From Escherichia coli (lineage in GTDB: Bacteria; Pseudomonadota; Gammaproteobacteria; Enterobacterales; Enterobacteriaceae), in NCBI RefSeq assembly GCF_048403405.1, contig NZ_CP183129.1: 64,000 nt of DNA; one strand, given 5' to 3'. Of the stretch, positions 15,141 through 15,339 are shown piece after piece (within the stretch, counting starts at the first letter, position 1; each line of letters opens with the position of its first letter). Under the pieces are notes generated by a model. That model made no database searches and was not told where the DNA came from. It saw nothing but the letters and a program-made list of their open reading frames with translations. The translations under genes and the position numbers were made by a program.

Positions 15141-15295
15141 GTACACCTTTCCAGATACGGGAGGCGAAGTCATTTCTTCCTTCGCCCTGGTGGCAATCTT
15201 TACGAGCATTGTCACGGCCAAAGCACCGTATCAGTTGACCCAGGTGCAGAGGCTAGAGTGTTTAGTGGTTAAGCCGATACTAGCGTGTAAATGAG
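15141..15295 (-). promoter_or_regulatory. moaA 5' leader, consistent with the Moco (molybdenum cofactor) riboswitch motif
   Basis: Long structured leader between the ModE site and the moaA RBS, where E. coli is known to carry the Moco RNA element; exact boundaries not determined. Confidence 0.45.
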
Positions 15296-15313
15296 ATTTT
15301 TACCATCCACACT

Positions 15314-15339
15314 TTCGCTATGTAATCATGTATATAGCG
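15314..15339 (-). promoter_or_regulatory. ModE binding site of the moa promoter
   Basis: Minus-strand sequence CGCTATATACATGATTACATAGCGAA, matching the CGCTATATA...TACAT operator pattern. Confidence 0.5.

Follow-up and report, generated by a model that had tools for sequence, protein, structure and literature searches.

Which elements control moaA and modA in a 64-kb stretch of Escherichia coli DNA (the whole of which is referred to here as the window), and does the occurrence of these elements so close together carry any meaning of its own? The original prediction held that molybdenum control elements are concentrated in this window, with ModE-type operators upstream of moaA and modA, and a leader resembling the molybdenum cofactor (Moco) riboswitch in front of moaA. 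The window is a segment of an E. coli chromosome, in the orientation opposite to that of the K-12 map: over bases 15000-15600, many E. coli chromosomes match it with 100% identity (strain N3 shows no difference in the 601 bases of this comparison), and this region is found at a coverage of at least 80% in 5417 of the 5426 complete genomes, in 4404 of these with at least 99% identity.

The moaABCDE operon occupies positions 12437-15140 on the minus strand, and its first gene is moaA (14151-15140, in agreement with the annotation of strain N3), which is translated from 15140 (ATG at 15140-15138); yvcK/ybhK (15537-16445) lies upstream on the plus strand. The operon for the molybdate ABC transporter, modABC (34254-36777, minus strand), consists of modA (36004-36777), modB (35315-36004) and modC (34254-35312), and is followed in increasing coordinates by acrZ (36943-37092, minus strand) and by modE (37221-38009, plus strand), the gene for the molybdate-sensing regulator, with modF alongside it on the plus strand. 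The identities of MoaA (TIGR02666, 369.7 bits), ModA (NF007958, 510.2 bits) and ModE (NF007957, 509.8 bits; ModE_repress and Mop domains) were confirmed with NCBIfam equivalog models, and the cognate regulator of the ModE operators is encoded in the same window. All gene coordinates are those of the window's own ORFs, with small indels relative to strain N3 over long distances.

A scan of the entire window with the Rfam models, at the gathering threshold of each family, detected the Moco family (RF01055) at positions 15272-15128 of the minus strand, with all 135 model positions (1-135) aligned and a score of 103.4 bits (E-value 1.2e-24). A covariance search of 15141-15300 had been set beforehand as the test on which the riboswitch assignment would stand or fall, and the match clears the RF01055 gathering score of 36 by a wide margin. 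The same aptamer scores 111.8 bits with our own covariance model (R1), and in strain N3 the corresponding position is annotated by PGAP as a 'molybdenum cofactor riboswitch', so that the presence of a Moco-riboswitch-like element, initially proposed from the position and flanking sequence of the leader, is borne out over the full length of the family model. The leader spans 15141 to approximately 15272, and the aptamer reaches 13 nt into the coding region; the boundary of 15141 assigned to the leader in the original prediction is indeed the first base 5' of the moaA ATG. The scan found no second RF01055 match anywhere in the window, including at modA, where some species carry a Moco RNA.

Other Rfam families are represented elsewhere in the window. 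The intercistronic RNA thermometer of CpoB/ybgF (RF02782) is matched over its full length, with 142.2 bits, at the pal-cpoB junction (51563-51701, minus strand). The tRNA cluster 3' of cpoB (50166-50636, minus strand) consists of five genes in the order Lys-Val-Lys-Val-Lys, compared with the seven of K-12 (lysT valT lysW valZ lysY lysZ lysQ); the absence of two tRNA-Lys(UUU) copies is presumably due to recombination among the repeats. The last tRNA-Lys and its 3' sequence overlap a match to the RtT RNA (50068-50234, minus strand; 54.4 bits with a gathering score of 45), which looks like an RtT-like repeat unit that ends the lys-val tRNA operon.

When the Rfam structure is mapped to the sequence, all five stems of the Moco RNA, P1 to P5, align around the conserved multistem junction (all on the minus strand). 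The closing helix P1 is formed by a 5' strand at 15270-15256 and a 3' strand at 15147-15134. P2, with its short distal helix, pairs 15253-15243 with 15227-15217, and contains a block of U/C-rich mismatches in its interior as well as a bulge that resembles a tetraloop receptor, CCUGGG...AUACGG (the whole of P2 spanning 15217-15253); the block is a 3x3 mismatch of 15250-15248 opposite 15222-15220. P3 is a stem-loop at 15190-15215 (15215-15211 with 15194-15190), in which a single A.C mismatch joins 15212 and 15193. P4 pairs 15187-15177 with 15172-15162 and carries tandem G.A/A.G pairs beside a GAAA tetraloop (15176-15173). Finally, P5 (15161-15160 with 15152-15151) is a mini-hairpin, CC-GUAUCUG-GG (15151-15161), located inside the invariant core CCUCCC...GGAAAGG. 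In the entire aptamer, seven positions are non-canonical, and these are found in P2, P3, the P4 tip and P1. The P3 stem is the feature that marks Moco-type as opposed to tungsten-cofactor-type RNAs, and its presence places the moaA leader in the Moco-type class.

The putative receptor in P2 (15237-15253 and 15217-15232) differs between lineages: the enterobacterial form, CCUGGG...AUACGG, is shared by E. albertii and Citrobacter, and the Vibrio and Rfam consensus form is CCUAAG...AUAUGG.

The aptamer lies directly 5' of the moaA start and overlaps it, with both the Shine-Dalgarno sequence and the AUG within P1, which fits the riboswitch class in location as well as in expression platform. The inner part of the P1 3' strand, GGUGUA (15142-15147), which holds the Shine-Dalgarno core GGUG (15147-15144), pairs with 15256-15262, whereas the AUG (15138-15140) occupies an internal loop between inner and outer P1 and is enclosed by the outer pairs (the P1 extension).

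The moaA Moco RNA of K-12 (RF01055; Regulski 2008), the strain used for the published experiments, is identical to that of the window from the second base of the leader to beyond the AUG, and shares with it stems P1-P5, including P3, the GAAA tetraloop, the ribosome binding site in P1 and the location upstream of moaABCDE. The sole difference within the aptamer is a T at 15272 where K-12 has an A; because this base, which corresponds approximately to the transcription start at promoter S1, is unpaired model position 1, an effect of the substitution on the aptamer is unlikely under the mapped structure. In the entire moaA-ybhK intergenic region, there are three SNPs relative to K-12, at 15272, 15407 and 15419, the latter two near the FNR site described below.

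To assess the structure independently of the family score, we scanned a collection of species-representative genomes with the exact core pattern CCTCCC-N-T-NNN-T-GGAAAGG, which yielded 120 loci. Given that, by calculation, some 560 chance matches are expected in the whole collection, the loci were filtered with a covariance model derived from the Rfam structure and the leaders of 18 gammaproteobacterial sequences; 100 loci from diverse taxa pass at an E-value of at most 0.001. In the alignment of these 100 relatives, which is fitted to the model, 82.1% of the cells are standard pairs, compared to 33-47% after displacement of the partners by 1-3 columns, compensatory changes are present in 33 of the 41 pairs, and the observed covariation score is reached by none of 500 shuffles. 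As a check, we also counted pairs on a plain MAFFT alignment of those 18 leaders, which is not fitted to the structure; this gives 70.1% paired cells (34-50% in the controls). Among the individual stems, 89-92% of the cells of P4 are paired (89% in the MAFFT alignment, with compensatory changes there in 8 of its 11 pairs), and, in the 100 relatives, 86% of those of P2, with compensatory changes in 10 of 11. Both P5 pairs read C-G in all but one of the 100 matched sequences (that one has a gap), a value that is not independent of the search because the loci were fetched with the same pattern.

Thermodynamic folding, which had also been suggested as a check on the leader, counts neither for nor against the aptamer. 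The minimum free energy of the moaA leader is not distinct from that of shuffled sequences (z -0.38), and the optimum is not the consensus aptamer fold (approximately -33 kcal/mol) but an alternative at -42 kcal/mol, 9 kcal/mol lower, which also pairs the Shine-Dalgarno sequence. Because this type of prediction is uninformative here, the fold was judged by the covariance model and by covariation.

Some of the fetched loci contain two Moco RNAs at a short distance from each other. One (L103) carries two in tandem on one strand (3371-3467 and 3572-3664), and another, from Syntrophomonas (L059), carries two on opposite strands (3192-3304, minus, and 4381-4502, plus); these pairs echo the multiple arrangements described in Regulski 2008 (PMC2408646).

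What would this RNA do in the cell? Under the reading that we favor, an abundance of Moco, or of a close pathway product, would close the aptamer and hide the ribosome binding site, leaving moaA untranslated (an OFF switch); the untranslated mRNA would then be exposed to Rho-dependent termination, whereas CsrA bound at two sites in the aptamer would reopen the ribosome binding site. The elements of this scheme that concern function come from published experiments. The ribosome binding site had been located within P1, the 131-nt stretch between promoter S1 and the moaA start codon, which represses when Moco is made, was recognized as the Moco RNA, induction of Moco synthesis represses a translational fusion more than 3-fold, and disruption of P3 derepresses the fusion, with restoration of P3 re-establishing repression (the P3 mutants M1 and M2; Regulski 2008, PMC2408646).

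One rival reading concerns the step at which expression is shut off: the switch might operate mainly via premature Rho-dependent termination, with occlusion of the ribosome binding site being the trigger or a secondary event. There is a Rho-dependent 3' end in the moaA 5' UTR or ORF, and expression of a fusion is more than 2-fold higher in the rhoR66S mutant (PMC7815308), and our scan detected no intrinsic terminator 3' of the aptamer. Nevertheless, the Shine-Dalgarno sequence and the AUG are inside P1, and repression is observed with translational fusions driven by lacUV5 (PMC2408646), so that a primary role of Rho appears unlikely, if by no means far-fetched; moreover, termination and occlusion are compatible rather than mutually exclusive.

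Another possibility, and in our assessment a highly improbable one, is that the moaA leader is not a true riboswitch but a conserved structured RNA whose reader is a protein, either CsrA or some Moco-binding protein. Such a reading could draw on the facts that reports of ligand binding in vitro are lacking, with Moco binding not demonstrated and the exact ligand of the Moco RNA not identified as of 2024 (PMC10845959), and that CsrA, which activates moaA translation, binds two sites inside the aptamer (review PMC7652899). Against it, the motif is a large one that has conserved nucleotides in its junction, a tetraloop and a receptor, it is spread over many phyla (the 100 matches come from diverse taxa), and its expression platforms vary in type (PMC2408646), a combination that is typical of metabolite aptamers. 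Furthermore, CsrA is an activator and does not mediate the repression by Moco. To our knowledge, CsrA is also missing from many phyla that carry the Moco motif.

A metabolite-controlled, translational OFF switch coupled to Rho would have close counterparts in the E. coli thiM, ribB and lysC riboswitches, in which the closing helix likewise hides the Shine-Dalgarno sequence and the untranslated mRNA is open to Rho. Unlike in these three cases, the putative ligand of the moaA RNA is an unstable metal-pterin cofactor, and the aptamer is in addition a target of CsrA, which acts as an activator.

At the level of transcription, the window was searched with the published E. coli ModE consensus, atCGnTATATA-N6-TATATAnCGat (PMC545781). 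In the form CGNTATATA-N6-TATATANCG, with at most 3 mismatches, this consensus has just two matches in the 64 kb, compared with 0.13 expected from shuffles. The first ModE pattern was shaped after the sites had been seen, and the test was redone with the independently published consensus; exact matches to TATAT-N7-TAYAT also number two, in the same two places (0.12 expected). The site upstream of moaA, CGCTATATACATGATTACATAGCG (15316-15339), consists of the half-sites CGCTATATA and TACATAGCG separated by CATGAT, agrees with 15 of the 16 consensus positions (1 mismatch), and forms an inverted repeat with 9-nt arms that are 89% complementary. The site at the modA promoter, CGTTATATTGACGCCTACATAACG (36797-36820), consists of CGTTATATT and TACATAACG separated by GACGCC, agrees with 14 of the 16 positions (2 mismatches), lies 20-43 nt 5' of the modA ATG and covers the -10-like hexamer TATATT (36817-36812). 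The two operators had been delimited at 15314-15339 and 36788-36822 in the original prediction, and both withstood the search, with somewhat narrower borders.

The moaA operator is identical in K-12 and E. albertii, and in Citrobacter, where it stands at another distance from the aptamer, 15 of the 16 consensus positions are kept. In Vibrio, Aeromonas, Psychromonas and other gammaproteobacteria that possess the riboswitch, no ModE match within 300 bp exceeds 10 of 16 positions. Among these few genomes, the combination of a ModE site and the riboswitch appears confined to enterobacteria. That the two palindromes, which are short, AT-rich and intergenic, one of them with a promoter-like TATATT inside, merely reflect the chance composition of promoter sequence has practically no likelihood, considering that they are the sole two matches in 64 kb, that both are located directly 5' of molybdenum genes, that the moaA site is kept in E. 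albertii and in Citrobacter despite the changed distance to the aptamer, and that it has the K-12 sequence, for which control by ModE is published. Binding of ModE-molybdate has been published for K-12 (Anderson 2000; Grunden 1999; both cited in PMC2408646), and, judging from their sequences, both palindromes are the known ModE operators.

The modA operator has diverged slightly from that of K-12. Both half-sites and the 6-bp length of the spacer are kept; the spacer itself reads TTGACGCC instead of TTGTCGCC, and one flanking base is a C where K-12 has a T, with no consensus position touched. The 71-nt modA promoter allele (36780-36850) is a minority type, with at least 99% identity in just 147 of 5274 E. 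coli genomes. In the same region, the tail of the acrZ terminator has a 1-nt deletion relative to K-12.

Two moa promoters have been described, a proximal one, S1 (+1), that is activated by ModE-molybdate, and a distal one, S2 (-87), that depends on FNR (PMC2408646, citing Anderson 2000). If the 131 nt that separate S1 from the start codon are counted back, transcription from S1 would start at approximately 15271-15272. The hexamer TAGTAT (15277-15282, minus strand) is then the likely, weak -10 element of this ModE-dependent promoter, and the moaA operator would be centered about 56 bp 5' of the start (around -56), the promoter coordinates being taken from the 131-nt figure of PMC2408646 and from our reading of the sequence. 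By the same reckoning, S2 would lie at about 15355-15359. Upstream of it is an FNR-like site, TTGATATACATCAT (15390-15403), with 1 mismatch to TTGAT-N4-ATCAA, the center of which would be 38-42 bp 5' of S2; from the S2 position computed here the distance comes to about 38 bp, not the classical 41.5. A scan of the moaA and modA intergenic regions for consensus sigma-70 promoters returned no match, and accordingly the promoter positions rest on the literature; for S1, a miss is expected because the promoter is activator-dependent. In a terminator scan of the same two regions, the only relevant hit is the acrZ terminator (36913-36936).

A perfect FNR consensus, TTGATTTATATCAA, is also present far from the molybdenum genes, at 60070-60083, approximately 335 bp 5' of the start of cydA (ORF 58164-59735, minus strand), and probably belongs to the FNR sites already known at the cydAB promoter.

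At modA, the overlap between the operator and the putative promoter fits a role of ModE as the repressor of modABC. Grunden 1999, a reference of PMC2408646, speaks of repression in its title; the verb 'upregulates' in the running text of Regulski 2008 (PMC2408646) is at odds with this title and with established knowledge.

Taken together, the elements very probably represent the circuit, already known, through which E. coli controls molybdenum on several levels. In this circuit, the sequence elements, their statistics, the full-length match to the covariance model, covariation, gene identities and conservation were computed here, and the actions of ModE and FNR, the repression by Moco, the requirement for P3 and the effects of CsrA and Rho are taken from the literature. 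With sufficient molybdate, the ModE-molybdate dimer would occupy both operators; at 36797-36820, overlapping the modA promoter, it would repress the modABC importer, and at 15316-15339 it would activate S1, leading to transcription of moaABCDE. Under anaerobic conditions, FNR at 15390-15403 would drive S2. Transcripts from S1 and S2 would both carry the approximately 131-nt leader and would fold it into the five-stem Moco aptamer, through which the translational control outlined above would be exerted. The exact promoter hexamers and their spacings, and the direct contact between Moco and the RNA, are the parts of the circuit that we infer.

Both the ModE sites and the Moco riboswitch are already known, and nothing in this arrangement is new: control by ModE and FNR, the Moco-responsive leader, and the involvement of CsrA and Rho were described from 2000 to 2013, and the riboswitch is annotated automatically in RefSeq. 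The value of the case is that of a positive control, in which a riboswitch and two operators were recognized from raw sequence with near-exact coordinates.

As for the concentration of these elements in one window, the elements are all present, as claimed, but their spacing is that of the normal E. coli map and nothing special: the moaA and modA operators are approximately 21.5 kb apart and modE is located between the mod genes and gal, the same as in K-12. Roughly eight targets of ModE are known in about 5 Mb. With such a number, the chance for any one target to have another within 64 kb is on the order of 0.2, and the clustering of ModE sites is therefore unremarkable in itself. There is only a slim prospect that the nearness of modE to its strongest operator (that of modA, at a distance of about 400 bp) and to that of moaA (at about 21.5 kb) has been selected, and that the strain variants (the T at 15272 and the modA spacer) slightly tune the circuit. 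Should this be the case, locally made ModE would quickly locate both operators, and molybdate import and cofactor synthesis would respond jointly.
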